Below, piece by piece: positions 5,303 through 60,045 of a stretch of DNA of 64,000 nucleotides. The notes below the pieces were generated by a model. The model was not told where the DNA came from. It did no database searches and saw only the letters and a list, made by a program, of their open reading frames with translations. The DNA lies in the NCBI GenBank assembly GCA_048213135.1, contig PS015009.1, positions 2,232,001 through 2,296,000 on the forward strand, in the 5' to 3' direction. Numbering within the stretch: the first letter of the stretch is position 1; every line of letters begins with the position of its first letter. This stretch comes from Reclinomonas americana ATCC 50394. Lineage: Eukaryota. The translations under genes and the position numbers were made by a program.

Positions 5303-7432
5303 TTGGATATAAAGAAAGACATATTGTGGAGGGTCTATCTCTGTTTTATAGGGATGATCGCACTGGGCCTGGTAGTGCTGGGTAAGGCTTTCTATATACA
5401 GCGGGTGGAAGGAAGCTTCTGGATCAGCATGGGCAATAACCTGCATCTGAAGTATCTGCCTATCGAACCCGAACGCGGCACCATCTACAGTGAAGATGGC
5501 AACATGCTCAGTACATCGGTTCCCATCTTTGATGTATACATCGACTTTGGAGCCGAAGGATTGAGGGAAAAGAACGGGAAGCGTTTCCGCGATAATATCG
5601 ATTCGCTCAGCCTCTCACTGGCTAATCTCTTTGGAGACAAAACGGCGGATGCCTATAAAAAACAACTGCAGCTGGCGTATAAGAACAAAGACCGGTACTA
5701 TACCCTCAGGAAAAAAATATCATTTGATGAATACAAGGCGCTGCGTGACTTCCCGCTGGTAAAACAGGGACGTAATAAAAGCGGTTTTATCATCGATCCG
5801 CGTGACAAACGTATCAATCCTTATGTATTGCTGGCCAACAGGACGATCGGTCTTTCCCGCGACGACTCTACCAAAAATGTGGGTCTTGAAAAAACATACG
5901 ACAGCCTGCTGCGTGGTACAAGTGGTCAGCGCCTGGTTCGTTACATCGCCGGGGCTTATATGCCCGTAGAAGGCGCCGAACTGGAACCTGAAAATGGAAA
6001 GGACATCATCTGCACCATCGACACCTATATGCAGGATGTAACCGAAAGCGCACTGATGAAGATGCTGGCAGGTAACAATTCTGTACACGGTACTGCGATT
6101 GTGATGGAAACCGCCACAGGTAAGATCAAAGCCATTGCCAACCTGGGTAAGCAGCCGGATGGCTCCTATGCCGAAGACCTTAACTATGGTATTGGCAAGG
6201 CCACCGAACCTGGGTCCATCTTCAAACTTGCTACACTGCTGAGTCTTATCGATGACAAGTATGTTACGATGAACAGTATGGTGGACTGCGAGGGCGGCGT
6301 AAAAAGTTTTTATGGCCTGCGTATTAAAGACTCACACCTGGGTGCTGGTAACGTAACGGTAAAGCAGGCGTTCCTGGCGAGCAGCAACGTGGCTTTTGCG
6401 AAACTGGTTGACCAGTATTACAGGAGTAATCCCAGGCAGTTTACGGATAACCTTCACCGTTACCGGCTGGATACACTGACCGGTGTGGATATTGTCGCTT
6501 CTTCCGCAAGGCCAACTATCTATAAGCCCGGAAGCCGCTACTGGCATGGGACTTCGCTGCCCTATATGGCGCATGGTTACGGCGAACTCGTAACACCACT
6601 GCACATGCTGATGCTGTATAATGCTGTAGCCAACAATGGTAAGATGATGAAGCCTTACCTCGTGAGCGCTATCCGTGAATATGGCGTTGATGTAAAAAAG
6701 ATAGAGCCACAGGTATTGGTGGAAAAGATCTGCAGCGATGAAACCCTGGTGCAGGTGAAAGAATGTCTCAGGGCTGTAGTGGACAGCCTGCATGGTACGG
6801 CGCATAAAATTGTTTTCGACAGCGCTTATGCCATCGCCGGTAAAACAGGTACAGCCGTTAGTGCGCTTAACAACAAAGGATATAATAAAGGCAATAAAAT
6901 ATACCAGGCTTCTTTCATTGGTTATTTCCCGGCAGAACAACCGAAATATACCATTGCCGTAGTGATACAAAACAGCCGCGAATCAAAACTGGTATATGGC
7001 GCCGATGTATCGGGCCGGGTGTTCAAAGAGATCAGCGACAGGATATATGGCAGCGCGCTGAGTAAAAAGAAATTCATGGCTTCGCCGAAACGCGACAGCA
7101 CACAATATAACTACTATGGTATGACCAATGACCTGAACTCGATTTTCGGGTTATTGAAAATACCATTTGTAGACTCTGCCAAAGGTGGTGTATGGAGATC
7201 GGTGCAAATGGTAAACAACAACGGGACCATGCAGCTGCCATCAGGAGGTATACAAACAGCGTCAACCATTACGCCGAATGTGGTGGGTATGGGGTTGAAA
7301 GACGCGGTTTACCTGCTGGAAAACATGGGCCTGAAAGTAACGGTAACGGGCAGGGGGCGTGTACTGAACCAGTCGCTGGCAGCGGGATCGCCATTTAAAA
7401 AGTCACAGAACATTTCATTGATATTGAACTGA
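5303..7432 (+). CDS. ftsI: Penicillin-binding protein FtsI (PBP3) with C-terminal PASTA domain
   Basis: RGTIY, EPGSIFK (SxxK), SSN, KTGT motifs; PASTA segment PNVVGMGLKDA; TTG start. Confidence 0.93.
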   Translation: MDIKKDILWRVYLCFIGMIALGLVVLGKAFYIQRVEGSFWISMGNNLHLKYLPIEPERGTIYSEDGNMLSTSVPIFDVYIDFGAEGLREKNGKRFRDNIDSLSLSLANLFGDKTADAYKKQLQLAYKNKDRYYTLRKKISFDEYKALRDFPLVKQGRNKSGFIIDPRDKRINPYVLLANRTIGLSRDDSTKNVGLEKTYDSLLRGTSGQRLVRYIAGAYMPVEGAELEPENGKDIICTIDTYMQDVTESALMKMLAGNNSVHGTAIVMETATGKIKAIANLGKQPDGSYAEDLNYGIGKATEPGSIFKLATLLSLIDDKYVTMNSMVDCEGGVKSFYGLRIKDSHLGAGNVTVKQAFLASSNVAFAKLVDQYYRSNPRQFTDNLHRYRLDTLTGVDIVASSARPTIYKPGSRYWHGTSLPYMAHGYGELVTPLHMLMLYNAVANNGKMMKPYLVSAIREYGVDVKKIEPQVLVEKICSDETLVQVKECLRAVVDSLHGTAHKIVFDSAYAIAGKTGTAVSALNNKGYNKGNKIYQASFIGYFPAEQPKYTIAVVIQNSRESKLVYGADVSGRVFKEISDRIYGSALSKKKFMASPKRDSTQYNYYGMTNDLNSIFGLLKIPFVDSAKGGVWRSVQMVNNNGTMQLPSGGIQTASTITPNVVGMGLKDAVYLLENMGLKVTVTGRGRVLNQSLAAGSPFKKSQNISLILN

Positions 7433-18262: not shown

Positions 18263-20158
18263 ATGATACATTTTGATTTGCCTAAAGATCAATCCTCCAT
18301 CATCAAGGTAATTGGTGTGGGTGGAGGCGGAAGCAATGCGGTAAACCACATGTTTTCACAGAACATTGAAGGCGTAAACTTCATTATCTGTAATACCGAT
18401 GCGCAGGCCATTGCCCTCAGCAATGTGCCCAACAAAATCCAGCTGGGGCCGCACCTTACACAGGGCCTCGGTGCCGGTGCTAACCCTTCTATCGGCCGCC
18501 AGGCCATGGAAGAAAGCCTGGAAGAAGTGAAACGCATCCTGGAAGTGAATACCAAAATGGCCTTTATTACAGCAGGCATGGGCGGTGGTACCGGTACCGG
18601 TGGCGCTCCCATACTGGCCAAGATCTGTAAAGACCTGGGTATACTCACCGTAGGTATTGTAACCACACCCTTCACGTATGAAGGCAAGAAAAGGATTGCG
18701 CAGGCGGAAGAAGGCGTGATGCTGTTAAAGAATCATGTCGATACTTTATTGGTGATCAGTAATGATAAACTGCGGCACCAGTTCGGCAATCTCAAAATGA
18801 AGGAAGCTTTTGCCAAAGCGGATAATGTACTCGCTACCGCGGCCAAATGTATCACCGATGTGATCAACAGCACCGGCCAGATCAATGTCGATTTTGCCGA
18901 TGTATGCACCGTTATGAGTAATGGTGGTGTCGCTATTCTGGGCAGCGCTACCGCGGAAGGAGAGAACAGGGCGGCTATGGCGATTGAGAATGCACTCAAT
19001 TCACCATTGCTGAACGACAATGATATTCGTGGTGCGAAATGGATACTCATTAACATCAATTCATCCGAAGGTGAACACGAGTTTACCATGGATGAAGTGG
19101 AAGTGATACAGAACCATTTGCTGGCACAGGCCGGTGAAGATACCGATGTTATCCTGGGCCTGGGTTACGATAATACCCTCGGCAGCGAGATCGGCATTAC
19201 CCTCATCGCCACCGGTTTTGAACACAAAGATCCGTTCTCCAAAGCCAAGGCAGCGCCTGTGGTAGAAGAGAAGAAAAAGGACGAAAAAATAGTGATGACC
19301 CTCGAAATGCCGGTTAAGGAAGAACCCCGCCCCATGGTGCAGCCCGTACTGCAGTTTGACGAACAGGAAGAGGAGAAGGCCATTGCCGAGATCAGCGAAG
19401 CACCGGTAGAAATGATTGAAGATCAATTCATGCCGAAATTGGTGGATGTGGAGCCTGAGCCGGTGCAGGTAAAATTACCTGGTAAAAATACTGTGGAAAA
19501 AATCGAGGAAAAACCCGTTTTTTTTGAGATATCTTCGGCCGCAGATCAAATACCGACTGTAGAGTTTGACATACCGCAGGTGCCGGTACCCTCCGAGAAA
19601 ACACCCACAGGATCCACTATTCCAAACCACGTTCCAACAGTAAATCAAGAAGCTAGCAATACCCCTTCGTCTGGGGGATTTTTGGCCAAACCCCTGCAGA
19701 TCTATGTGGAGGAACAGCCAGTGAAACCAGAATCCAATTCGAGTGAGGAGCTACCATCACTGCAGATTAAAGACCAGGTAGACGAGCCTGAGATTGAAAT
19801 GCAACTGGTGGTTAAACCCCATCAAGCGGCGGAGGAAGAGCAACATGTACAACAGACTCAGCCCATCATGATATCCGATGTTGAGGAACCTGCAGTGCAG
19901 GACGAAGCAGAGGAGCTCAGGCGCCGGGCCGTGGATCGGATCGCTAAACTGCGTAATTTGTCATTCAATATTAACGCAGCCGATCCTAATAATGAGTTTG
20001 AAACGGTGCCTGCTTACCTTCGCCGCAACATGGACCTTCACAATTCCATCGCCAATGTAGAGAGCTTCTACAGCAACTACACCGTGAAGTCAGACGAGAA
20101 CAACCAGGCTGAGATCAGCACCATCAACACTTTTTTAGACGGAAAAAAACCTGATTAA
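18263..20158 (+). CDS. ftsZ: Cell division GTPase FtsZ with long acidic linker
   Basis: GVGGGGSNA, GAGANP, GMGGGTGTG and NVDFADV motifs; C-terminal peptide ETVPAYLRR. Confidence 0.98.
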   Translation: MIHFDLPKDQSSIIKVIGVGGGGSNAVNHMFSQNIEGVNFIICNTDAQAIALSNVPNKIQLGPHLTQGLGAGANPSIGRQAMEESLEEVKRILEVNTKMAFITAGMGGGTGTGGAPILAKICKDLGILTVGIVTTPFTYEGKKRIAQAEEGVMLLKNHVDTLLVISNDKLRHQFGNLKMKEAFAKADNVLATAAKCITDVINSTGQINVDFADVCTVMSNGGVAILGSATAEGENRAAMAIENALNSPLLNDNDIRGAKWILININSSEGEHEFTMDEVEVIQNHLLAQAGEDTDVILGLGYDNTLGSEIGITLIATGFEHKDPFSKAKAAPVVEEKKKDEKIVMTLEMPVKEEPRPMVQPVLQFDEQEEEKAIAEISEAPVEMIEDQFMPKLVDVEPEPVQVKLPGKNTVEKIEEKPVFFEISSAADQIPTVEFDIPQVPVPSEKTPTGSTIPNHVPTVNQEASNTPSSGGFLAKPLQIYVEEQPVKPESNSSEELPSLQIKDQVDEPEIEMQLVVKPHQAAEEEQHVQQTQPIMISDVEEPAVQDEAEELRRRAVDRIAKLRNLSFNINAADPNNEFETVPAYLRRNMDLHNSIANVESFYSNYTVKSDENNQAEISTINTFLDGKKPD

Positions 20159-20262
20159 TACAACCGCACGCCGGTACAGCCATGTGCCGGCTTTGCTGTT
20201 TCAACTTTTGTTTGTGTTTGTAATACCGCCGAAAGGCAAATTTGGTGATTTTAGTTATGTGG

Positions 20263-20292
20263 CCCCGCTCTTCCAAGAGCGGGGTTTGTGTT
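20263..20292 (+). terminator. Intrinsic terminator after the dcw cluster
   Basis: CCCCGCTCT-tcca-AGAGCGGGG stem followed by TTTGTGTT. Confidence 0.7.
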
Positions 20293-20293
20293 G

Positions 20294-20361
20294 CCGTCGC
20301 CCGGTCTCCCGACCAGCGACATTCTTAGCCGCCGCTGTTTGGTCTCCAGACCAACAGCGGC
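20294..20361 (+). repeat. Pair of REP-like hairpins (GGTCTC..GACC family)
   Basis: ccgtcgcccggtctcccgaccagcgac and gccgctgtttggtctccagaccaacagcggc. Confidence 0.75.
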
Positions 20362-20542
20362 CTCAATTTGGGCGTGTCCCTGCGGGCCGGGCTTTCCGCT
20401 GCTAGTCCTCCCCCGTGTAATGCAATACTGTGGCTCCTTCGTCGCCAGGTTAGCTAACACGGGGTGCGGGCTATACACTGCAATCCCTCACGCAGCCTCC
20501 ACTGAAGCCGCCACAGCGTGTTATAGCTCTACTTGTTTTGAC

Positions 20543-20801
20543 GTATCTTCTGCACAAGCTTTAGCAACTCCCGTACAAAGTTCAGTAACTTTTAAATATG
20601 GTTCAGTAACTTCTGCAAGTCATCCGGTAACTTATAAAAATGAAATAGTAACTTTTACAAAAGCCTCAGCAACTTTTCCAAATGGCCCGGTAACTTCTAT
20701 TATAGCTACGGTAACTTTCGCGAATGAGCTGGAAACTTTGCCACAGGTTTCAGTAACTTCTGTAATGACCACAGTAACTTCCACATAAGGCCCGGTAACT
20801 T
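20543..20801. repeat. Phased array of 13 x 21-bp units: conserved GTAACTT core plus variable 14-nt spacer
   Basis: Cores start at 20543, 20564, 20585, 20606, 20627, 20648, 20669, 20690, 20711, 20732, 20753, 20774 and 20795. Nine are exact GTAACTT; the variants are GTATCTT, GCAACTC, GCAACTT and GAAACTT. Confidence 0.92.
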
Positions 20802-20934
20802 TTTAACAGAGCGCACAGGGTTAGGAAGTTCACAGAGATGTTCTGTGCATCTCTGTGGAAACCCTCCGTGCCCTCTGTGAAAACTCTTTGCTTCTCTATG
20901 AAAACTATCCCGCGTACACCAACCCCGTTTAGCC

Positions 20935-21004
20935 GCCGCCGTTTGGTCTCCTGACTAATGGCTGCCAGATGCGGGATGCCGTCGCCTGGTCTCCGACCAG
21001 CGAT
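20935..21004 (+). repeat. Second pair of REP-like hairpins (GGTCTC..GACC family)
   Basis: gccgccgtttggtctcctgactaatggc and gccgtcgcctggtctccgaccagcga. Confidence 0.7.
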
Positions 21005-21326
21005 ACCCGCTGTTCAGCCGGGGTCTTCGTGTAAACGAAACCCCGGAGACAAAAATTTATAAGTATTTATCTAGCCCTTGTTGCTATCCGCTGCAATCGC
21101 CGCTTCTATCTTCACCACTGTTGTGTCTTCTGCCAACAGCGAATATTTGATAAGTTGTTCGAGAAAATACCAAACGGAGTTGAAACAGTAAATTGTATGA
21201 GAGTTTGTGTAACATGTTTTAAGTATTCCTTTTATATATCTTTATTATTAAAATTGTAAGTATAGGCATTTTGTCATTTGCGTATATTTATGAGTTATAG
21301 GCAAGCATATTAACACACTCTAAACA

Positions 21327-21842
21327 ATGACAGCAAAAGACATACAGAAGGAGTTTATAAAAACGTATTTGAAGCCGACATTAAAAGAACACGGATATAA
21401 AACAAGCGGACAGACTTGGTGGAAAGATATGGATGACTTTTTTATTGTGATAAATCTTCAAAATTCACAATGGAACAGCAAAGAGCAACTCAGTTTTTGC
21501 TTGAATATAGGAGTTGCGTTGACAGAGAAACTTGCCGATAAAGATAAAAAGAAGGCAACATACTTTGACTTAGCGACACAAGCTCGGGAGAATGTTTATT
21601 TACCAAGAGGCAGACAAGAAATTAAAATATCTAAGGGCGGCTGGCTTGGTTATAAAGTCACTGACACAACAAATATTACCGATTTTATCTCAGACTTTAA
21701 AATTGACTTGGAAGACAATATTCTGAAGATACTTGATAGTTTCAAAACACTTGGTGACTGTGTTAAATTCTATGAGAAGTATGAGCATTTAGCAGAAAAT
21801 TTAAAAAATCAAATGACAGAATGTGGTATCAAGATACCTTAA
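21327..21842 (+). CDS. DUF4304-like protein, AT-rich
   Basis: LKPTLKEHGYKTSGQTW...VINLQNSQWNS...FCLNIGV resembles DUF4304; visibly AT-richer than the flanking genes. Confidence 0.7.
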   Translation: MTAKDIQKEFIKTYLKPTLKEHGYKTSGQTWWKDMDDFFIVINLQNSQWNSKEQLSFCLNIGVALTEKLADKDKKKATYFDLATQARENVYLPRGRQEIKISKGGWLGYKVTDTTNITDFISDFKIDLEDNILKILDSFKTLGDCVKFYEKYEHLAENLKNQMTECGIKIP

Positions 21843-21902
21843 TAAAATACCTACCCGTTAGGCGAAATCTTAACCAGCAAAACGGAGCATAAGTAAAATC
21901 TA

Positions 21903-22436
21903 ATGAATTCGAATTTTCCAATACTGAAGACAGAACGGCTTTTACTAAGGCAATTTGCCGAAAGTGATTTAGAAAATGTATTCAATGGCCTTTCACATCC
22001 CGACATTATCAGGTATTATGGAGTAAGCTACTCAACTTTAGAAGCCACAAAAGCACAAATGGAATTTTTTGCTGACCTCGAAAAGAATGAAACCGGAATT
22101 TGGTGGGCTGTATGTTCACCTGATAATCAATTGTTTTATGGCGCCGGAGGGCTTAACAGTTTAAGTAAAGAGCATAAAAAAGCTGAAATTGGTTTTTGGT
22201 TGCTCCCTGATTATTGGGGTAAAGGATTTATGACCGAAGCAATGCCATTGATTTGTAACTATGGCTTTGATACATTAGGTATTCATAGAATAGAAGGCAT
22301 AGTTGAAACAGAGAATTTGCTTTGTAAAAAGGCAATGGAAAAACTCAGGTTTCAGCATGAAGGAACTATGAGGGAATGTGAGATTAAAAATGGAAAGTTT
22401 ATTAGTCTCGATATTTACGCAAAACTTAAAGTGTAG
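21903..22436 (+). CDS. GNAT N-acetyltransferase (RimJ/RimL type)
   Basis: FPILKTERLLLR, AEIGFWLLPDYWGKGFMTEA and FQHEGTMR motifs. Confidence 0.9.
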   Translation: MNSNFPILKTERLLLRQFAESDLENVFNGLSHPDIIRYYGVSYSTLEATKAQMEFFADLEKNETGIWWAVCSPDNQLFYGAGGLNSLSKEHKKAEIGFWLLPDYWGKGFMTEAMPLICNYGFDTLGIHRIEGIVETENLLCKKAMEKLRFQHEGTMRECEIKNGKFISLDIYAKLKV

Positions 22437-22464
22437 TTTCAGTCTTTGTTGGTGTTTGCTGCTT

Positions 22465-22950: not shown

Positions 22951-24016
22951 TTATTTGAATAATAAATGGATGACGCCTTCTTTTTGCGTGATGACGGTTA
23001 ACAATGATGATAAATTTCCCGACATGATCTCGTCCAGTAACTTTGAAGTAGATCCATTGTATTCAAGGGTAAGGGTAGCGATCTGACTATCGAAGGAAGA
23101 CTCCATTTTTTTTTACACCCGGATTGTTCTTAACGACCTCCTTAAAGTCCCGGAATTTATTATAGTCGGCATTGCTGATGCTGATAACGATGTTGGTGTT
23201 GCCCGTTCTTTTGGATGTCCCTATTTCAGGAACGATCATAATGTCTTTTTGAGAAGACAACCATTCTGCAGCTTGTATAAGTCCCTGTTCCAATGCATTG
23301 GCAACGGCAGGAGTATACTTATTGCCGCCGGAAAAATCAACGCGCTGGTTGCCCAATATAGTAGGTAAGCCGACACCGATACTTACTTTGTCGGAGGATT
23401 TACCTTCCACATTAAATGACCTTGATTCAAACACTTCTCTTGTTTCGGGATTGGTGATGGTAACAATGAAGCCAAGGCGTACTATTTGTTTGCTTAGTTT
23501 TAGCGGACCAAATGTTTTACCAGAGGTTTGATTGTTGAACTCAGTTATTTCGCCGGTAACAACAACCTGGGCAGATTTCATATTCCCTTTCTTGATGGCT
23601 GTCTTTTTATCGGCCGACTCACTCTCACCGAACCGGATCTCTTTATCAAGGTCTTCTTTGTTATCCAGGTTTACCAGCACATTGAAGCAATTGGTTTGCT
23701 GAAGAGCAGTTTGCAACATGGTGGCCATGTTGCCGCCGAACTCTATCATCCCGGCTTCCGGATTTGTTTGGCTGTTGGAGTTATTGAAATACCAGTTCGT
23801 ATTATAATTCTCATTTCCTGTTGCCTTGCTTTTTAAACTTCCCCTGGTAGAGATGTCGAATCTTGTAACAGCTAACCTGATCCTTTCATTCAAAGGAGTT
23901 ACATCGCAAATAGCTTTCACCTGTTCTTCTTTCACCTTGACTTTTTTTTGAGCGGATGCAACATGGATACTGCAGATCAGTAAAAGGAAAGCGGGTAGGG
24001 ATAAATTTGATTTCAT
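22951..24016 (-). CDS. CsgG/HfaB-family secreted protein; the ORF stops at 23087 as given and continues to 22951 after removing one base from the T9 run
   Basis: Signal peptide; IRLAVTRFD...MLQTALQQTNCFNVL...AQVVVTGEITEFN is CsgG-like. The frameshift falls at 23106-23114. Confidence 0.7.
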
Positions 24017-24268: not shown

Positions 24269-24295
24269 GCCGTCGTTTGGTCTCCTGACCAACGG
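24269..24295 (+). repeat. REP-like hairpin (GGTCTC..GACC family)
   Basis: gccgtcgtttggtctcctgaccaacgg, just downstream of the DUF2490 stop. Confidence 0.7.
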
Positions 24296-32404: not shown

Positions 32405-33205
32405 GTGAACTCTTCTCTCCTGCACATACTGCTTTACATCGCCGGTGGCATAGCTGTACTTTCCGTGATCGTATATTTCATCCAGGAAAAATTCATTTTT
32501 AAGCCTGAAAAATTAAAGCAGGATTTCCAGTACAAGTATGATGCGCCTTTCAGGGAATTGTTCTTTGATGTAGAACCCGGTGTAAGGATCAACGGGCTTC
32601 ATTTTTTTGTGGATAAACCGCTGGGGCTGATCCTTTATTTTCATGGCAACTCCCGCAGTATTAAAGGATGGGCCAAGTATGCCCGGGATTTTTACCGCTA
32701 TAATTATGATGTGGTGCTGGTGGATTACCGCGGTTTTGGCAAGAGTACTGGTAAGCGTACGGAAAAAGATATGCTGAATGATATGCAGTTTGTGTACGAC
32801 AGCCTGAAAGCCACTTATCCTGAAAACCACCTGATCGTTTACGGGCGCAGCCTGGGCAGTGGGTTTGCAGCCAAGCTGGCGGCCGATAACAAACCCCGCT
32901 ACCTGATACTGGATGCGCCTTATTTCAGTTTCAGGAAAACGATAGAAAGATTCCTCCCCATCCTCCCGGTCAAATATATTTTACGGTATCATCTTCGCAG
33001 CGATAAGTGGATTCCTAAGGTAAACTGCCATACGTATATCCTGCATGGTACCAAGGACTGGCTCATACCCATCAGCCAGAGTGAGCAGTTGCAGGCGCTT
33101 AACCCCAGGAAGATCACCCTCATCCGGATCGTCGGCGGACGGCACAATAACCTGCCTACTTTCCCGGAGTACCATAATTTTATAAGAGACATACTGAAGT
33201 ATTAA
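32405..33205 (+). CDS. Membrane-anchored alpha/beta hydrolase (ABHD-like)
   Basis: LYFHGN, DYRGFGKS, GRSLG nucleophile elbow, HGTKD and GRHNN motifs. Confidence 0.9.
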   Translation: MNSSLLHILLYIAGGIAVLSVIVYFIQEKFIFKPEKLKQDFQYKYDAPFRELFFDVEPGVRINGLHFFVDKPLGLILYFHGNSRSIKGWAKYARDFYRYNYDVVLVDYRGFGKSTGKRTEKDMLNDMQFVYDSLKATYPENHLIVYGRSLGSGFAAKLAADNKPRYLILDAPYFSFRKTIERFLPILPVKYILRYHLRSDKWIPKVNCHTYILHGTKDWLIPISQSEQLQALNPRKITLIRIVGGRHNNLPTFPEYHNFIRDILKY

Positions 33206-33301: not shown

Positions 33302-34108
33302 ATGAAAAAACGCCTCTTCACATGGCTGAAAATCCTCATCATTGTTTACTCCGTGATTGGTATTTCACTGTACTACCTGCAGGAAAAATTCCTTTTTCAT
33401 CCTGAAAAGTATCCTGCCGGGCACAAGTACCAGTTTGATATGCCTTTTGAAGAAGTGAACATTGCCATTAACGCGACAGACACTGTGAATATGATCAAAT
33501 TCTTCCCGCGTGACAGTATAAGAAAAGGTGTGGTACTTTATTTCCACGGCAATAAACAAAACATTGAGCGGTATGCCCGTTTTGTTCCGGATTTCACTCA
33601 ACATGGCTATGAAGTGTGGATGGAAGACTATCCCGGCTTCGGAAAAAGCACCGGCGAAAGAACGGAGAAGAAATTGTACGAAGAAGCGATGCAGGTGTAT
33701 ACGATGGCGCAGAGCCACTATCACCCGGATAGTATTATTTTATATGGCAAATCTTTTGGAACCGGTATTGCCTCCTACGTTGCTTCGCAAACGGATTGTA
33801 AAAGACTGGTACTGGAAACCCCTTATTACAGCATACCCGCTTTGTTTAACAGTTACGCTCCCATTTATCCTACCACAAGAATGAGTACGTATAAAATACC
33901 GGTGAATGAATACCTGCAGGAGGTAAAATACCCCATCAGTATTTTTCACGGCACTGATGACGGTGTTATCCCTTACCGGTGTGCAGCTAAATTGAAAAAA
34001 GTATTGAAACCAACCGACGAGTTTATTACTATCGATGAAGGTACGCATCATGATCTGGCCGGTTTTCCTGTGTACAAACGGAAACTCGACAGTTTGCTGA
34101 ATCATTGA
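33302..34108 (+). CDS. Membrane-anchored alpha/beta hydrolase, paralogue of the upstream gene
   Basis: LYFHGN, DYPGFGKS, GKSFG, HGTDD and GTHHD motifs. Confidence 0.9.
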   Translation: MKKRLFTWLKILIIVYSVIGISLYYLQEKFLFHPEKYPAGHKYQFDMPFEEVNIAINATDTVNMIKFFPRDSIRKGVVLYFHGNKQNIERYARFVPDFTQHGYEVWMEDYPGFGKSTGERTEKKLYEEAMQVYTMAQSHYHPDSIILYGKSFGTGIASYVASQTDCKRLVLETPYYSIPALFNSYAPIYPTTRMSTYKIPVNEYLQEVKYPISIFHGTDDGVIPYRCAAKLKKVLKPTDEFITIDEGTHHDLAGFPVYKRKLDSLLNH

Positions 34109-35228: not shown

Positions 35229-36143
35229 TCATTTTTTTTCTGACAAAACCGTTTTATTTTTCGTCACCCGGAAGTTGTGCACAACACCCGATTTTAAAGC
35301 GTAGTTTTCTTTACCATGACTTACCGGGAAACCGAAGCATACCGGGTAATCATATTCAGCCACTACATCGCGTATCACTTCTTCAATGGTTTGCCCGAAA
35401 GGTCTTTCCGTATCCTTCATATCGGTGAAGCCGCCAACAACCAGACCGGCGAGTTTATCCAGTTTACCAGTGCGTTTCAATTGGTACAACATACGATCGG
35501 TGCTGTAAATGTATTCGCCGGTGTCTTCTATAAAAAGAATTTTTCCTTTTGTCTGCAAGTCAGATGCTGTACCGCAGAGATGGGAGAGCAGTGCCAGGTT
35601 GCCGCCCACCAGCTGACCGGTGGCCTCGCCTTTCCTGTTGAATGGATGCGGGCTGGCGGAGTAAGATAACCGTTTGCCTGTAATGGCCTTTCGGAGCGAC
35701 TGTACAAATTCGTTTTCGTAGCCGCCGTCGTTAAAAGCCGCGGCCATAGGGGCGTGCAGCGTGGCTATGTCGTACTTCGTATGTATATGTGCGTGAAGCA
35801 CGGTAATATCGCTGAACCCGATGATCCATTTCGGGCGCTTCCTGAATTTTTTAAAATCCAGCCCGTCAATGATACGCCCGACGCCATAACCGCCACGTCC
35901 GCAGAGTATGGCCTGGATGCCGTCATCGTCCAGCATGGCCTGGAGTTCATCCCGCCGGTCCTCGTCGGAACCCGAAAAATAATTGCCGGAGCCGCTGCCC
36001 AGTGTCTTACCCACCATTACCTGGAACCCCCACTGCTGGAGGATTTCAATGCAGGTGGCCGCTTTGTCGGCTGCCATATAACCGGCGGGGCAGGTAATGC
36101 CAATGGTGTCGCCTTTTTTAAGATAGGGAGGTGTCCTGTTCAT
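35229..36143 (-). CDS. LD-carboxypeptidase (peptidase S66)
   Basis: RGGYG, GFSDIT, GGNL, FIEDTGE and FPVSH catalytic motifs; ATG 36143 preferred as start. Confidence 0.92.
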   Translation of the reverse strand: MNRTPPYLKKGDTIGITCPAGYMAADKAATCIEILQQWGFQVMVGKTLGSGSGNYFSGSDEDRRDELQAMLDDDGIQAILCGRGGYGVGRIIDGLDFKKFRKRPKWIIGFSDITVLHAHIHTKYDIATLHAPMAAAFNDGGYENEFVQSLRKAITGKRLSYSASPHPFNRKGEATGQLVGGNLALLSHLCGTASDLQTKGKILFIEDTGEYIYSTDRMLYQLKRTGKLDKLAGLVVGGFTDMKDTERPFGQTIEEVIRDVVAEYDYPVCFGFPVSHGKENYALKSGVVHNFRVTKNKTVLSEKK

Positions 36144-36222
36144 AAGTTCTGCTGCTGCCGGGCCCTGTACAGGCTTCTGTGGCACTTTTTTTGTTAAATT
36201 TACTGGCACAAAACTACCGCTT

Positions 36223-39200
36223 ATGCGCCTGCTGCTCTTTTGTCTTATCATCATGCCCTTTACCGGCATAGCTCAAAAATACAAGGAAAAGAACAATCAG
36301 CCGAACAGGCCAACAGCGCCCTGTACGCTCCCGGGTATGTTGCCCCAAACGGCCATCGCTGTTTGCGGTACCATGGATTTCAAACAAAACAGTGTTGCGC
36401 ACTGCGACGGGCAAACCATCAATACCAACAGCACCTGCGCTGGCGGCGGAACATCAAGGGATTCCTACTGGTACAAATTCCGTTGTTATACGGCAGGCTC
36501 GCTGGGTTTTCTCATTAAGCCCGATGTATTGTCTGATGACTACGACTGGGAACTGTTTGATGTTACCGGCATTGCCGATCTTGACCAGGTATATACGAAT
36601 GAAAGCCTGATGGTCTCTCTCAACCTGTGCGGAAGTCCCAACGGTGTTACCGGTTGCCGCTCCGATGGTATTACCAACGTGAACTGCGGCGGCGCTACCA
36701 ACCTCATCAACAAACTGGCCGACCTACAGCTGAATCATGATTACCTGCTGATGGTAACCAACTGGTCCACATCAGGCACGGGTTATACGCTCAGCTTTTC
36801 CGGCGGCACCGCGGTTATTACAGAAAATATTCCACCGGTGATCAGTAATGTTCAGACCGCGGGCTGTAACAGCAGCAAATTGAAAGTTACTTTCTCAAAA
36901 GATATTAAATGTTCAACAGTGAGTTTGGATGGCAGCGAATTCACCGTTCTGCCTGCCGGTCCGGCTGTAACCAGTGTCAATTCCGGTTGTGCTGCGGGGT
37001 TCTCGTCTATCACCAACCTGGAAGTTAACCTCGCATCGGCACTGACCCCGGGTAATTATAGCCTGCGGGTAGGCAAAGGAAGCGTAGACAATAATACCTT
37101 CTCCGATGTTTGTGATGTTTTTATCGCAGACGGATTCGATATACCTTTTGTAGTGGGACCGGTGCCACCAACTACGGTTACGGGAGTAACCTATTCCGGT
37201 TGTGCGCCCACCGTACTGGATGTGCAGCTGAGCCGCCCGATATTTTGTAACAGCATTTCCGCCGATGGCAGTGAATTTGCCATTACACCCGGTACTCCCA
37301 CGCCCCCTGTCATCCTTTCCGCACAATATACCTGCGCTAACGGCGGAACGCCCAGCGTAAGGCTTACGCTTCAGAATCCTTTAATGCATGGTAATTACCA
37401 GCTGGCACTGAAAGATGGTACAGATGGCAATGGTCTTGTGGATACCTGTGGCAGGGCGCTGGCCAATGGCAATGCCTATAATCTTATCATTCCGCAAACC
37501 ACCGTTGCGCCTGTTATACAATCTGTAGGTTTTGATGAATGTCATCCCGATCAGCTCGTACTGAATTTTGATAAAGCGGTAGCCTGTGGTACACTGTCAC
37601 CAGTAAGTGGCACAGAATTCGTCATCACCCCGGGAACATGGACTGTTAATACCCTTATCACCAACTGCACCGGCGTGTATACCAAACAGGTGACCCTCCT
37701 GCTGCAAAATCCTTTGCCGGGTGGTAACTATACGGTAAATATTAATGGTGGTACAGACGGTACTACCATCGCGGATACCTGCTATGCATTCACAGCACCG
37801 GGGTATAATTTCCCGTTTACCGCCACGCAGGCACCAGCTCCCATATTTGATTCGGTACAATTTGATAAATGCGAACCTTCTTCCGTAAAACTGTTTTACA
37901 GCCACCCTATCCGTTGCAGCAGTATTGCTCCCGATGGTAGTGACTATACCGTTACCGGTGCCTCAGGCGTTACCGTTACTGCGGCCAGTACAGATCCCGC
38001 TACCTGTGGCGCGGGTTATACGCGTTGGGTGACGCTGCAATTTTCTCAGCCCATCACCGTGCCTGGTAATTACCTGGTGCATAACGGTATGGGTTCCGAT
38101 GGTTCCGGGGTGATTGATACCTGCGGCGCTTCGCAGAACACAACCGAAACCATTGGCTTTACTACGCTGGGAAAACCATCGGCGGGCTTTATATCTGTAG
38201 TACAATGGGGTTGTGAGAAAGATACCATCACCTTCTCCCACTCCGGCGGTAACGGGGTCAACTCATGGGAATGGGTGTTCAGCGACGGCTCTACGGCATC
38301 CGGACAAACCGTAACGCGTACATTCCCCATCACATCCGCCACCATCACAGCGCAACTGATGATATCCAACGGAACCTGCGGCGACACACATGTTGAGACC
38401 ATCACCCTGGGCAATACTTTTGCACCCGCATTCAGCAAGTTACCAAAGGATACCGCCTGTTTGAATGAACCTGTTGCCTTTACGGATGAGTCGGTAGGCT
38501 CAGGGCTGCAATACCTGTGGGATTTTGGCGATGGCTCACCACAATCGCCGGGGCAGAATGTACCGCCGCATATCTATACCAATCCGGGTGTTTATATCAT
38601 CCAGCTCATTGTATCTGACAGTCACGGTTGTAAGGATACCGCCAGCAGTAAACTTTTTGTGGCAGACAGGGCCAAAGTAGATTTCACAGGACTGCAACCG
38701 CAATACTGTACCGATAAAACGATCACGCTCTACCGGGTGATCAGTCCCAATATCATTTCCTATACCTGGAACAATGGCAATGGTCTTACACTCGATAACC
38801 GCACCTTTGTGCAGTTCAGTTATCCCAATGAAGGTGTATATACCATTACGCTGACCGCTAATGATAAATATTGCACACCGGCACAAATGAGCAAGACGGT
38901 GGCAATTTACAAAACGCCGGTACTGGACCTGGGCAGGGATACCGTTCTTTGTCCCGCCTCCCCTTTATTGCTGGGCGTACCACCCACCAGCGGCTATGCT
39001 TATTACTGGAATACCGGCGCCATTACTTCGCAGGTACTAACGGATATCTTTACACGCTACTATAAACTCACTGTCGATAACCATGGCTGTAAAGCGGAAA
39101 GTGATATCAATGTCAAGGTACTGCCCGCCTGCCTTATCAAAGTGCCTACGGCCTTTACGCCTAATAACGACGGTATCAATGATCAGCTGAAAGCAGTGAA

Positions 39201-39477: not shown

Positions 39478-40506
39478 TTATCGTGCTTCGCTCAGCCGGC
39501 ATTCATTCAGGTGAACGCCGAGGGTATGTACCATGCCGCATTTAATGGCGAAATTATTTTTCTGGTGTCCCACAGGAAAATCGAAACATACCGGGAAGCT
39601 GTATTCCTTTACTTTATCGAGTACGATCTGTTCCAATGTTTGACCAAACTCTTCACCTTCATCATCTTTTTTGATCTTGAAGCCGCCCACAATAAGACCG
39701 ATCAGTTTGTCGAGTTTACCGCTTCGTTTCAGGTTCCAGAACATACGATCGATACTGTACAGGTATTCCCCGGTGTCTTCTACAAAAAGGATCTTTCCTT
39801 TGGTATTCAGATCGCTCTTACTGCCTGCCAGTGTCTCCAGTGTTTTCAGGTTACCGCCTACCAGTTCGCCTGTGGCGAGTCCCGTCCTGTTATTGGGGTT
39901 GGGAGCGAAAGTATACCGCATCTTTTCACCGGTGATGCACTGGCGGATGGAATCAATCGTTTCTATTTGTATGGGCTCCGCCTTGCTCCAGTCGGATGGA
40001 AAACTGTTGCACATTTTGGAATGAATGGTCATGATGCCCTGGTTGCGGTTGATGTGGGAATGCAGCACGGTAACATCACTAAAGCCGATGAGCCATTTGG
40101 GTTTGTCGGAAAATTTTTTAAAACTGAGCTGGTCGATGATGCGGATGGCGCCATACCCGCCCCGGGCGCAGAGTATAGCTTTAATGTCCTTATCATCCAG
40201 CATTTCCTGCATGTCGGTGAGCCTTTCCGCGTCGGTACCTCCAAACGTAAAGTTCCTTTTACCTACGGTGGAGCCGGTCACGACATTAAACCCCCATTCT
40301 TTCAGTTTACTTACAGCCGGCTGAATATCCTCATTCGTAATATAGCCCGCCGGGCAGGTGATGCCAATGGTATCTCCCGCTTTTAAAAAAGGCGGCGCAA
40401 TGAGCGGGCCTTCATTAGAAATATATTGCGACGGCGACTCTTTGGCCAGCGCCTTCATAGCTGCTCCGCTGGCGAGAACAGATGCGAGAAATTTCTTACG
40501 TTCCAT
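39478..40506 (-). CDS. LD-carboxypeptidase (peptidase S66) with possible export signal
   Basis: RGGYG, GFSDVT, GGNL, EDTGE and FPVGH motifs; N-terminus MERKKFLAS...ALA is Tat-like. Confidence 0.92.
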   Translation of the reverse strand: MERKKFLASVLASGAAMKALAKESPSQYISNEGPLIAPPFLKAGDTIGITCPAGYITNEDIQPAVSKLKEWGFNVVTGSTVGKRNFTFGGTDAERLTDMQEMLDDKDIKAILCARGGYGAIRIIDQLSFKKFSDKPKWLIGFSDVTVLHSHINRNQGIMTIHSKMCNSFPSDWSKAEPIQIETIDSIRQCITGEKMRYTFAPNPNNRTGLATGELVGGNLKTLETLAGSKSDLNTKGKILFVEDTGEYLYSIDRMFWNLKRSGKLDKLIGLIVGGFKIKKDDEGEEFGQTLEQIVLDKVKEYSFPVCFDFPVGHQKNNFAIKCGMVHTLGVHLNECRLSEAR

Positions 40507-53400: not shown

Positions 53401-53514
53401 TTTTTGCCGCTGCCTGGTCTCTGCCGCTGCTTGGTCTCTGACCAGCAGCGTAGGTTTTTTTTGCCGTTGCCTGGTCTCTGCCGCTGCCTGGTCTCTGACC
53501 AGCAGCGTATAGTT
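53401..53514 (+). repeat. Two tandem 57-bp units, each a truncated plus a full REP-like hairpin
   Basis: tttttgccgYtgcctggtctctgccgctgcYtggtctctgaccagcagcgta repeated at 53401 and 53458. Confidence 0.88.
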
Positions 53515-53599
53515 TTTTGTCCACTTCCCACATTTTTACTTTTACTTTTGATTTTTGACTTTCCCGCCCCCGTACATTTGTTCTAAATCAATATTCATT

Positions 53600-59891: not shown

Positions 59892-60045
59892 TGATAATTA
59901 CGAATTAGCGGTTACGAATTTTTCCGGGTATTCAGGGTTCATATCCGGTATCTGGTATCCTGCATCTTATCTCCCGCATTTCACATCCTTCTTTTGCCCC
60001 CTCCCGATTTAGTAGTAACTTTGCATTTCCAACAAACAAGCTCCC

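Follow-up and report, generated by a model that had tools for sequence, protein, structure and literature searches.

We examined a stretch of 64,000 nucleotides (hereafter the window; Reclinomonas americana ATCC 50394, assembly GCA_048213135.1, contig PS015009.1, positions 2,232,001 to 2,296,000 of the forward strand) in which 13 head-to-tail copies of a 21-nt unit, each opening with a GTAACTT-like core, lie in a 1.17-kb gap that has ftsZ, the last gene of a division and cell wall (dcw) cluster, on one side and an AT-rich insert on the other. We found that this array is a decayed tandem repeat under unequal constraint, and our tentative reading is that its cores may be protein-binding sites aligned on one face of the DNA. 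Judged by gene content (FtsL_2, a type IX secretion system (T9SS) sorting domain and a Bacteroidetes-type extracytoplasmic function sigma factor), the window belongs to Bacteroidota, and upstream of ftsZ lie rsmH, an ftsL-like gene, ftsI, murE, mraY, murD, ftsW, murG, murC, an ftsQ-like gene and ftsA. The initial annotation, made from the sequence alone, had placed the array just past the dcw terminator, bracketed by pairs of hairpins resembling repetitive extragenic palindromes (REP-like) and beside an AT-rich insert; the hairpins found at 20170-20191, 20292-20362 and 20929-21005 bear out this arrangement, which is as follows (positions are those of the window).

18263..20158, plus strand: ftsZ, last gene of the dcw cluster (Pfam Tubulin 3.6e-46, FtsZ_C 4.4e-18), with its stop at 20158.
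20170..20191, plus strand: terminator-like hairpin directly after ftsZ, with a 9-pair stem (6 GC pairs) and the T-run tail TTTGCTGTTT.
20262..20292, plus strand: second GC hairpin, then TTTGTGTT (terminator-like); DNA fold -11.4 kcal/mol, z = -5.2, 0 of 200 shuffles as good.
20292..20362, no strand assigned: left REP-like hairpin pair, A (20292-20320) and B (20325-20362), fold z = -3.6 and -6.0.
20367..20500, plus strand: GC-rich element E1, two GGGCTTTCC..CTGCAA..TCC-like half-repeats, between hairpin B and the array.
20543..20815, plus strand: the array, 13 head-to-tail units of 21 nt, consensus GTAACTT-YYnCAaAwGnyyCR, extended core CR-GTAACTT-YY.
20585..20801, plus strand: best-kept block, 11 cores in a row that all have AACTT (9 GTAACTT, 1 GCAACTT, 1 GAAACTT).
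20816..20920, plus strand: tail in the same 21-nt register, with the hairpin CACAGAGATG/CATCTCTGTG at 20831-20858, fold -10.2 kcal/mol, z = -4.2.
20929..21005, no strand assigned: right REP-like hairpin pair, B' (20929-20966) and A' (20977-21005), 84% and 94% identical to B and A.
21040..22450, plus strand: AT-rich insert, GC 0.30-0.37 against about 0.45-0.53 in the flanks.
21327..21842, plus strand: DUF4304 gene (Pfam DUF4304 1.2e-15), not a DNA-binding protein.
21903..22436, plus strand: GNAT acetyltransferase gene (Pfam Acetyltransf_3 1.5e-30), not a DNA-binding protein.

The period of the array is exactly 21 nt across all 13 units. Nine cores read GTAACTT (at 20585, 20606, 20627, 20648, 20690, 20711, 20753, 20774 and 20795), and the other four are one or two bases off (GCAACTT at 20669, GAAACTT at 20732, GCAACTC at 20564 and GTATCTT at 20543); by direct reading and by register layout there are no insertions or deletions (indels), and the tally first reported, of 13 cores at an exact 21-nt period with nine of them identical and no indels, stands. 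Self-identity of the array region is 0.56 at a lag of 21, compared with 0.31 at lags of 20 and 22. A search of the window for GTAACTT-N14-GTAACTT with at most one mismatch gave 10 matches, every one of them in the array, against 0.01 expected from 100 shuffles of the 64 kb; with up to three mismatches there were 15 matches against 5.04 expected window-wide, 12 of them in the array, and the three paired sites beyond it (about five being expected for the whole 64 kb) do not exceed chance. Because the units are so degenerate, Tandem Repeats Finder calls only 20647-20696 (period 21, 2.4 copies). A general detector of any 7-mer core at periods of 15-33, run over 802,113 bases (the window and the retrieved loci), found 103 arrays, of which the present one has the lowest spacer identity (0.53 by the detector's measure), tied with a 5-unit, 32-nt array in locus L062, and it found no second array of this type within the window. 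Nor does the 64-kb window hold a second copy of the array, its leader or its tail. The array core resembles TAnnTTTG, the Bacteroidota-type promoter motif (-7 box), the final G of which is present in one unit only (GAAACTTTG, 20732), a unit lacking the T at box position 1. Six copies of GTAACTT lie outside the array in the window, and two of these (23037-23045 and 60015-60023) read GTAACTTTG, which contains the box.

The 14-nt segments between cores had initially been called free spacers, and this description is wrong. All 13 are distinct, the closest pair being identical at 9 of 14 positions, but their mean pairwise identity is 0.42 where 0.26 is expected from composition, and positions 12 (A in 11 of 13 units), 14 (A in 10) and 16 (G in 9) are biased, as is position 9 (T in 9). 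The reported tendency of the spacers to end in (t/c)cR is real, with C at position 20 in 10 of 13 units and a purine at position 21 in all of them. Since the spacers are related and the whole unit has a degenerate consensus, we conclude that it is a tandem repeat of 21 nt that has decayed, rather than a repeat-spacer array.

The decay is strikingly uneven. Deviations from the column majority number 0, 3, 0, 1, 0, 0 and 1 in columns 1-7 and between 2 and 8 in each of the remaining columns, which amounts to 5 deviating cells of 91 in columns 1-7 and 79 of 182 in columns 8-21 (84 of 273 overall, or 31%). A block of seven columns as clean as this one appeared in 132 of 200,000 column shuffles. In simulations in which a perfect array was decayed uniformly to the same total divergence as observed, such a block was never reached, whether at m = 0.35 (0 of 20,000) or at m = 0.31 (0 of 50,000; smallest block sum 9, against 5 observed). 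Conservation of the seven adjacent core columns is thus far above that produced by uniform decay. In addition, 13 units contain no indel despite spacers near saturation, and therefore the spacing itself seems to be constrained; a helical lattice seems to explain why it should be held at 21 nt. The case shows that a constant core with differing spacers can come from unequal decay of a tandem repeat, and that a repeat-spacer system is not implied by such a pattern.

The initial annotation had proposed that genomes be scanned for (GTAACTT-N14)n. A scan of a genome collection for three GTAACTT cores at 21-nt spacing returned at least 111 stretches; the matches listed include neither a relative of this kind nor the window's own genome. 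From these matches we extracted 110 arrays, leaving out arrays of fewer than three units and the last spacer of each array: 41 have a period of 7 and are (GTAACTT)n-like, 54 have a period of 21 with spacer identity of at least 0.7, and 15 fall below 0.7. Among those listed that have at least five units, spacer identity does not drop below 0.58-0.59; the window array has 0.42. The period-7 arrays, for which the query selects, are spread over many phyla, Bacteroidota, Ignavibacteriota, Cloacimonadota and Chloroflexota being well represented (loci L007, L009, L019, L020, L023, L029, L035, L037, L040, L043, L055, L069, L071, L074-L076, L078, L086, L096, L097, L099-L101, L104 and others). When 53 arrays of at least four units (period 7 excluded) were scored by their consensus spacers against the spacer profile of the window, the best score, 8.1 bits, belonged to L013 (99.9th percentile of random 14-mers, 7.3 bits), followed by L061 at 6.2 bits, which lies inside a stop-free stretch of 2126 codons, while the other arrays scored at most 3.0. 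L013 is a contig of a Bacteroidetes metagenome-assembled genome, with the unit GTAACTT-TCTCACAGAGTTCA in a convergent gap between lpxC/fabZ and pgk, and its flanks have nothing in common with those of the window; the same assembled genome also holds one of the period-7 arrays, L055. The related unit in L013 suggests that the window array descends from a 21-nt minisatellite family, and it keeps alive the alternative of a former heptad-repeat gene (taken up below), but it leaves the core unexplained.

The flanks of the array are distinct on the left (20363-20542) and on the right (20816-20928), and the only inverted matches are the REP-like hairpins and a weak 28-nt pair at 20192-20219 and 21165-21192 (75% complementary, 14 of the first 15 nt), which brackets the REP/array region of about 1 kb; this pair is of borderline significance and could be where an inserted block begins and ends. 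The hairpins belong to a GC-rich REP-like family built around GGTCTC, with further relatives at 24269-24293 and at 53401-53518, the latter including a 57-nt tandem duplication. In the right-hand pair, A' has a fold z of -2.9 and B' is degraded (z = -0.95). Element E1 has no match in Rfam; its first 44 nt are found at 86-89% identity in 3 of 72,556 plasmid records, the three being from Bacteroides and Phocaeicola (blastn; L112 3001-3085, L113 1501-1544 and L114 1415-1458), the B. ovatus copy lying at a site without a listed gene, and E1 is a short element common to distant Bacteroidota. This 44-nt piece is the only match of the region in the plasmid collection, and no record in the phage collection matches the region. 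In the tail, units reading CTCTGTG-GAAACC, CTCTGT-GAAAACT and CTCTAT-GAAAACT begin at 20858, 20879 and 20900, that is, 15, 16 and 17 times 21 nt after 20543.

The AT-rich insert was probably acquired horizontally. It also contains a weak match to two consecutive cores (GTAAATT-N14-GTAACAT, 21188-21215), which precedes the DUF4304 start by about 110 nt; this match does not keep the phase of the array and is no more than chance would give. In line with the initial annotation, no gene associated with the array was found: by Pfam or NCBIfam, no Rep, Par/ParB, Cas, LytTR or AraC family member is present among 57 scanned open reading frames (ORFs) of the window. Farther downstream, two paralogous LD-carboxypeptidase-like genes (35232-36269 and 39481-40506, both on the minus strand) flank a gene for a 1061-aa PKD/T9SS protein, and two alpha/beta-hydrolase paralogues (32405-33202 and 33302-34105, plus strand) are adjacent to one another; both pairs are ordinary local duplications.

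One explanation for the array is that it is a dead minisatellite in MITE-like or REP-rich junk (MITE, miniature inverted-repeat transposable element), a 21-nt slippage product that is now decaying and has no present function for the host. The nearest described analogue that we found would fit this explanation. BrickBuilt, a MITE minisatellite of Porphyromonas gingivalis, is characterized (PMC4596501) as an intergenic element with a leader, a tail and an internal 23-nt minisatellite whose units have conserved and variable positions, present in 19 copies per genome with 0-11% mismatches and 0-6% indels; the IS5-like terminal inverted repeats (TIRs) listed there for BrickBuilt or the P. gingivalis MITEs carry the terminal hexamer GGTCTC. 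In the window, similarly, the whole unit retains a degenerate consensus even in its spacers, the 21-nt register runs on into a tail of different composition, and the array lies between a distinct "leader" and "tail" and between REP-like hairpins bearing GGTCTC, as the BrickBuilt TIRs do (PMC4596501). BrickBuilt units likewise have conserved and non-conserved sites and, in the same source, are always intergenic. A non-coding minisatellite would also be in keeping with the other period-21 arrays, only 6 of 53 of which lie inside a stop-free stretch of more than 300 codons, while 5 have stops in all six frames and most of the others have stop-free stretches only somewhat longer than the array itself. 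However, a dead minisatellite decaying uniformly never yields seven adjacent near-invariant columns, and the absence of indels is left unexplained. Array, leader and tail have no second copy in the window, the flanks show no similarity to any of the 114 retrieved loci save for the 44-nt piece of E1, and the share of deviating cells far exceeds the 0-11% mismatches given for BrickBuilt (PMC4596501). We consider this explanation possible but unlikely. If the array is merely a decaying minisatellite it is an ordinary object, yet the preservation of a seven-base core and of phase would still need explaining. In the literature searched there is no description of the array; to call it an undescribed element, as was done initially, is nevertheless an overstatement, since intergenic minisatellites of Bacteroidota with conserved and variable positions are in print (PMC4596501).

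A period of 21 nt could also reflect coding, and three frames of the array give heptads, one on the plus strand (x-V-T) and two on the minus strand (E/K-V-T and K-L-L/P). The plus-strand ORF (20288..20788) is open for 83 codons and closes at a TAA (20786-20788) although two more cores follow, and the minus E/K-V-T frame is interrupted by internal stops, both as initially reported. Stop counts in all six frames match the expectation of a column model (for example, 5 against about 5 in the minus K-L frame), and the plus V-T frame is open because its column composition seldom yields stops (1.29 expected, 2 observed). A check of the spacers for codon-position bias had been suggested; run on the unit columns, it gave 6.9, 6.8 and 7.7 bits of information by codon phase, a flat profile with no 3-nt periodicity and no visible relaxation of the third position. 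Codon choice, with 17 genes from the window as the reference, is extreme. The plus V-T frame would use GTA for all 10 Val residues (usage 0.37) and ACT for all 12 Thr residues (usage 0.14; P = 2.7e-15), and the minus E/K-V-T frame would have GTT as its Val codon in 12 units (usage 0.16; P = 3.7e-10). For the minus K-L frame the figures are AAG in 12 of 12 Lys codons (usage 0.29; P = 3.6e-7) and TTA in 9 of 11 Leu codons (usage 0.089; P = 1.7e-8). The array translation has no match in Pfam, and the 82-aa and 166-aa translations of the plus frame have no near-length homologue among 5.8 billion proteins. An all-length HMMER search of 1.84 billion representatives returned only P0001 and P0002, two repeat proteins that reach their scores by adding up 7-8 weak stretches (about 27-30 bits each for P0001 by pairwise BLASTP, with a repeat of about 57 aa and not a heptad); we judged these matches to be artefacts of many weak repeated stretches. 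We thus conclude that the array is not coding at present, and the original suggestion that selection acts on nucleic acid rather than on protein is supported by stops at chance level, by the use of rare codons and by the clustering of the constraint.

It is conceivable that the array is the relic of a heptad-repeat protein gene, now a pseudogene, which would have encoded coiled-coil-like K-L-L-x-x-hydrophobic-x heptads if read from the minus strand or V-T heptads if read from the plus strand. Twenty-one nucleotides are seven codons, the plus frame is open as described, and the minus frame reads KLLNFVR, KLLNHI*, KLLKPVA and ELLKLVQ, among others, and heptad position 6 is hydrophobic (xTx codon) in 10 of 13 units; moreover, two of the five in-array stops fall at heptad position 7, both of them TAA, where other units have CAG, CGA or CGG. 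The related unit of L013 adds to this, as the same frame is open there as a 145-aa (KLLNSVR)n sequence (5795-6232, minus strand, downstream of pgk), with some protein-like codon variation and with degenerate heptads that retain Ser (TCT/TCC/TCA), Val/Ile/Leu and Arg (CGG/AGG). This frame may encode a real small coiled-coil-like protein; in Pfam it has sub-threshold coiled-coil-like matches only, led by DUF948, which scores 27 bits where 37.2 are required. Yet no frame of the window array avoids stops relative to the column model, conservation has no 3-nt periodicity, and rare codons are near-exclusive in every frame (P from 1.7e-8 to 2.7e-15). Proline follows K-L or K-F in 5 of 13 heptads and would break a helix, there is neither a start codon nor a promoter box, and near-length protein searches found no homologue of the window ORF or of the plus-strand ORF of L013. 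A pseudogene, furthermore, would not retain the core once the frame was lost. An origin in a heptad gene is, in our judgment, doubtful.

The array might instead act as RNA, as an unstructured transcript whose 13 GUAACUU motifs would sponge or load an RNA-binding protein or a small RNA. With a fold poorer than that of 197 of 200 shuffles (z = +2.2), the plus strand would leave the motifs single-stranded, and read-through from the dcw operon, which runs in the same direction, is possible; for the minus strand the fold is ordinary (z = 0.57). Direct repeats of an asymmetric motif in themselves reduce self-complementarity, however, and an exact 21-nt pitch is not needed for RNA binding in a beads-on-a-string manner. 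Two terminator-like hairpins and the REP hairpins stand between ftsZ and the array, the intergenic region (20159-21326) is devoid of TAnnTTTG boxes, and a scan for sigma-70-type promoters remained at shuffle level. Rfam 15 has no match at gathering score in the whole window, the best local E-values being at least 0.5 and belonging to unrelated eukaryotic and enterobacterial families. A function as RNA is therefore quite improbable, and the miniature repeat-spacer RNA entertained in the initial annotation is unsupported, as there is no Rfam match, promoter box or structure and two terminator hairpins lie upstream. Although a constant core does alternate at fixed period with 13 different 14-nt segments, a miniature guide array of the CRISPR or TIGR type is hardly credible, because such arrays have unrelated spacers, a structured repeat of at least 20 nt and adjacent effector genes, whereas here the "spacers" are mutually related (0.42 against 0.26), the repeat, just 7 nt long, forms no hairpin, the scanned window ORFs include neither a cas-like nor a Nop-domain gene, and the region is unmatched in the phage collection.

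The reading that we favour, with somewhat less than even confidence, is that the array is a degenerate 21-bp minisatellite whose core and two-turn spacing have persisted as binding sites for protein, arranged head to tail along one face of double-stranded DNA. A non-coding minisatellite of at least 13 units, with about 18 in register, would have been decaying while purifying selection kept a core of 7-11 bp (CR-GTAACTT-YY) and the exact spacing of 21 bp. Because 21 bp is two turns of B-DNA, all cores come to lie on the same side of the duplex and in the same direction, and a row of protein monomers or dimers could bind cooperatively along one face for about 270 bp. In favour of this geometry, a secondary conserved patch (positions 12, 14 and 16) is found about one helical turn from the centre of the core. 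Such binding to the duplex would, by analogy with known direct-repeat sites, be the source of the constraint, and the outcome would be a high-capacity locus serving as a titration sink, as a roadblock or boundary after the dcw operon, or as the binding array of a mobile-element protein. Judged by geometry, candidate binders would include AraC-type or hybrid two-component system (HTCS) regulators, LytTR-type regulators and an element-encoded protein, none of which is encoded nearby. Same-face sites two turns apart had been proposed from the beginning, and in PMC3878776 this geometry is documented for direct-repeat regulators, including those of Bacteroidota.

Several observations weigh against protein-binding sites. 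No regulon is visible within the 64-kb window, and among the 57 scanned ORFs there is no candidate binding protein (LytTR, AraC, Rep or ParB). The array has 13 repeats and no promoter-like box, whereas known operators have two or three promoter-adjacent repeats, and it lacks at least one defining feature of each of the iteron, HTCS-operator and LytTR-operator classes. The pattern of the secondary conserved patch, A-x-A-x-G, is atypical of contiguous groove contact. Finally, in L013, where ten near-perfect units follow degenerate ones, the core is not specially kept in the degenerate units, and that array may be an open heptad-repeat ORF.

A more specific form of the binding-site reading, which is speculative and which we hold to be unlikely though not negligible, is that of an orphan chromosomal "DNA sponge": the 13 same-face sites would load a filament of an AraC/HTCS-type or LytTR-type regulator encoded elsewhere, thereby buffering its free concentration or forming a nucleoprotein boundary at the end of the dcw operon, and the decoy array would have been exapted from a minisatellite. 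If core and spacing are indeed maintained for protein binding, this bacterial chromosome would contain a natural decoy or scaffold array, in high copy, for a transcription factor, of a kind that synthetic biologists build but that is rarely documented in nature, and the case would be one of a minisatellite exapted into a regulatory DNA element in Bacteroidota.

Among known systems, iterons share with the array many direct repeats in head-to-tail order that recur about every two helical turns (17-22-bp units); each iteron is bound as a unit by one protein, as is proposed for the array. Vibrio cholerae chromosome 2 has iteron-like 12-mers at regular spacing. In plasmid pMbo4.6, four direct repeats of 21-22 bp are bound by RepA (PMC3557383). 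The initial annotation had called the array iteron-like, but strict membership fails. Iterons have an adjacent Rep gene, and here the neighbours are ftsZ, DUF4304 and GNAT genes, with no Rep match in the 57 ORFs; most of an iteron unit is conserved, compared with only 7-11 of 21 bp here (columns 1-7 and, weakly, 8-9, 12, 14, 16 and 20-21); and the array is chromosomal and follows the dcw operon, unlike plasmid or phage iterons. There is no cluster of DnaA boxes either, the window holding 64 matches against 65 expected and the intergenic region a single match with one mismatch. An AT-rich stretch does start about 225 bp downstream of the array, but it bears genes.

LytTR sites share the pitch of about 21 bp. 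In four papers (PMC4847170, PMC4005675, PMC6193735, PMC11347149), they consist of direct repeats of 8-11 bp with spacers of 10-13 bp, in two or rarely three copies, the regulators with such operators including AgrA, ComE, YpdB, HdrR and CoxC. As described there, the bases beside the repeats matter, the family lacks a shared consensus, and the two or rarely three repeats lie just upstream of the -35 box, in contrast to 13 repeats in a window whose scanned ORFs gave no LytTR match. RemA-type wrapping was considered as an analogue and rejected, since RemA sites have a pitch of about 10 bp (PMC8481266).

Predicted HTCS (AraC-type) motifs of Bacteroides are direct repeats averaging 21 bp apart, which places them on the same side of the DNA at two helix turns (PMC3878776). 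They have in common with the array conserved direct sites about 21 bp apart, a non-conserved spacer and the phylum, and their monomers sit on one face, as is proposed for the array; the likeness is one of geometry. In that source two sites lie upstream of regulated operons, against 13 promoterless sites in the array, near which neither an HTCS nor an AraC gene was found.

BrickBuilt, as described in PMC4596501, shares with the window array its phylum, its intergenic position, tandem repeats of about two turns without separate spacers, conserved and variable sites, distinct non-repetitive flanks, and hairpin or TIR sequences of the GGTCTC type nearby. The comparison is by description, as the BrickBuilt unit is given there as a logo only. 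The unit is 21 nt in the window and 23 nt in BrickBuilt, and the window array is present in one copy in 64 kb, against 19 per genome (PMC4596501). It combines its heavy load of mismatches with zero indels, where BrickBuilt has few mismatches and up to 6% indels, and, unlike BrickBuilt, it has a sharply bounded invariant core.

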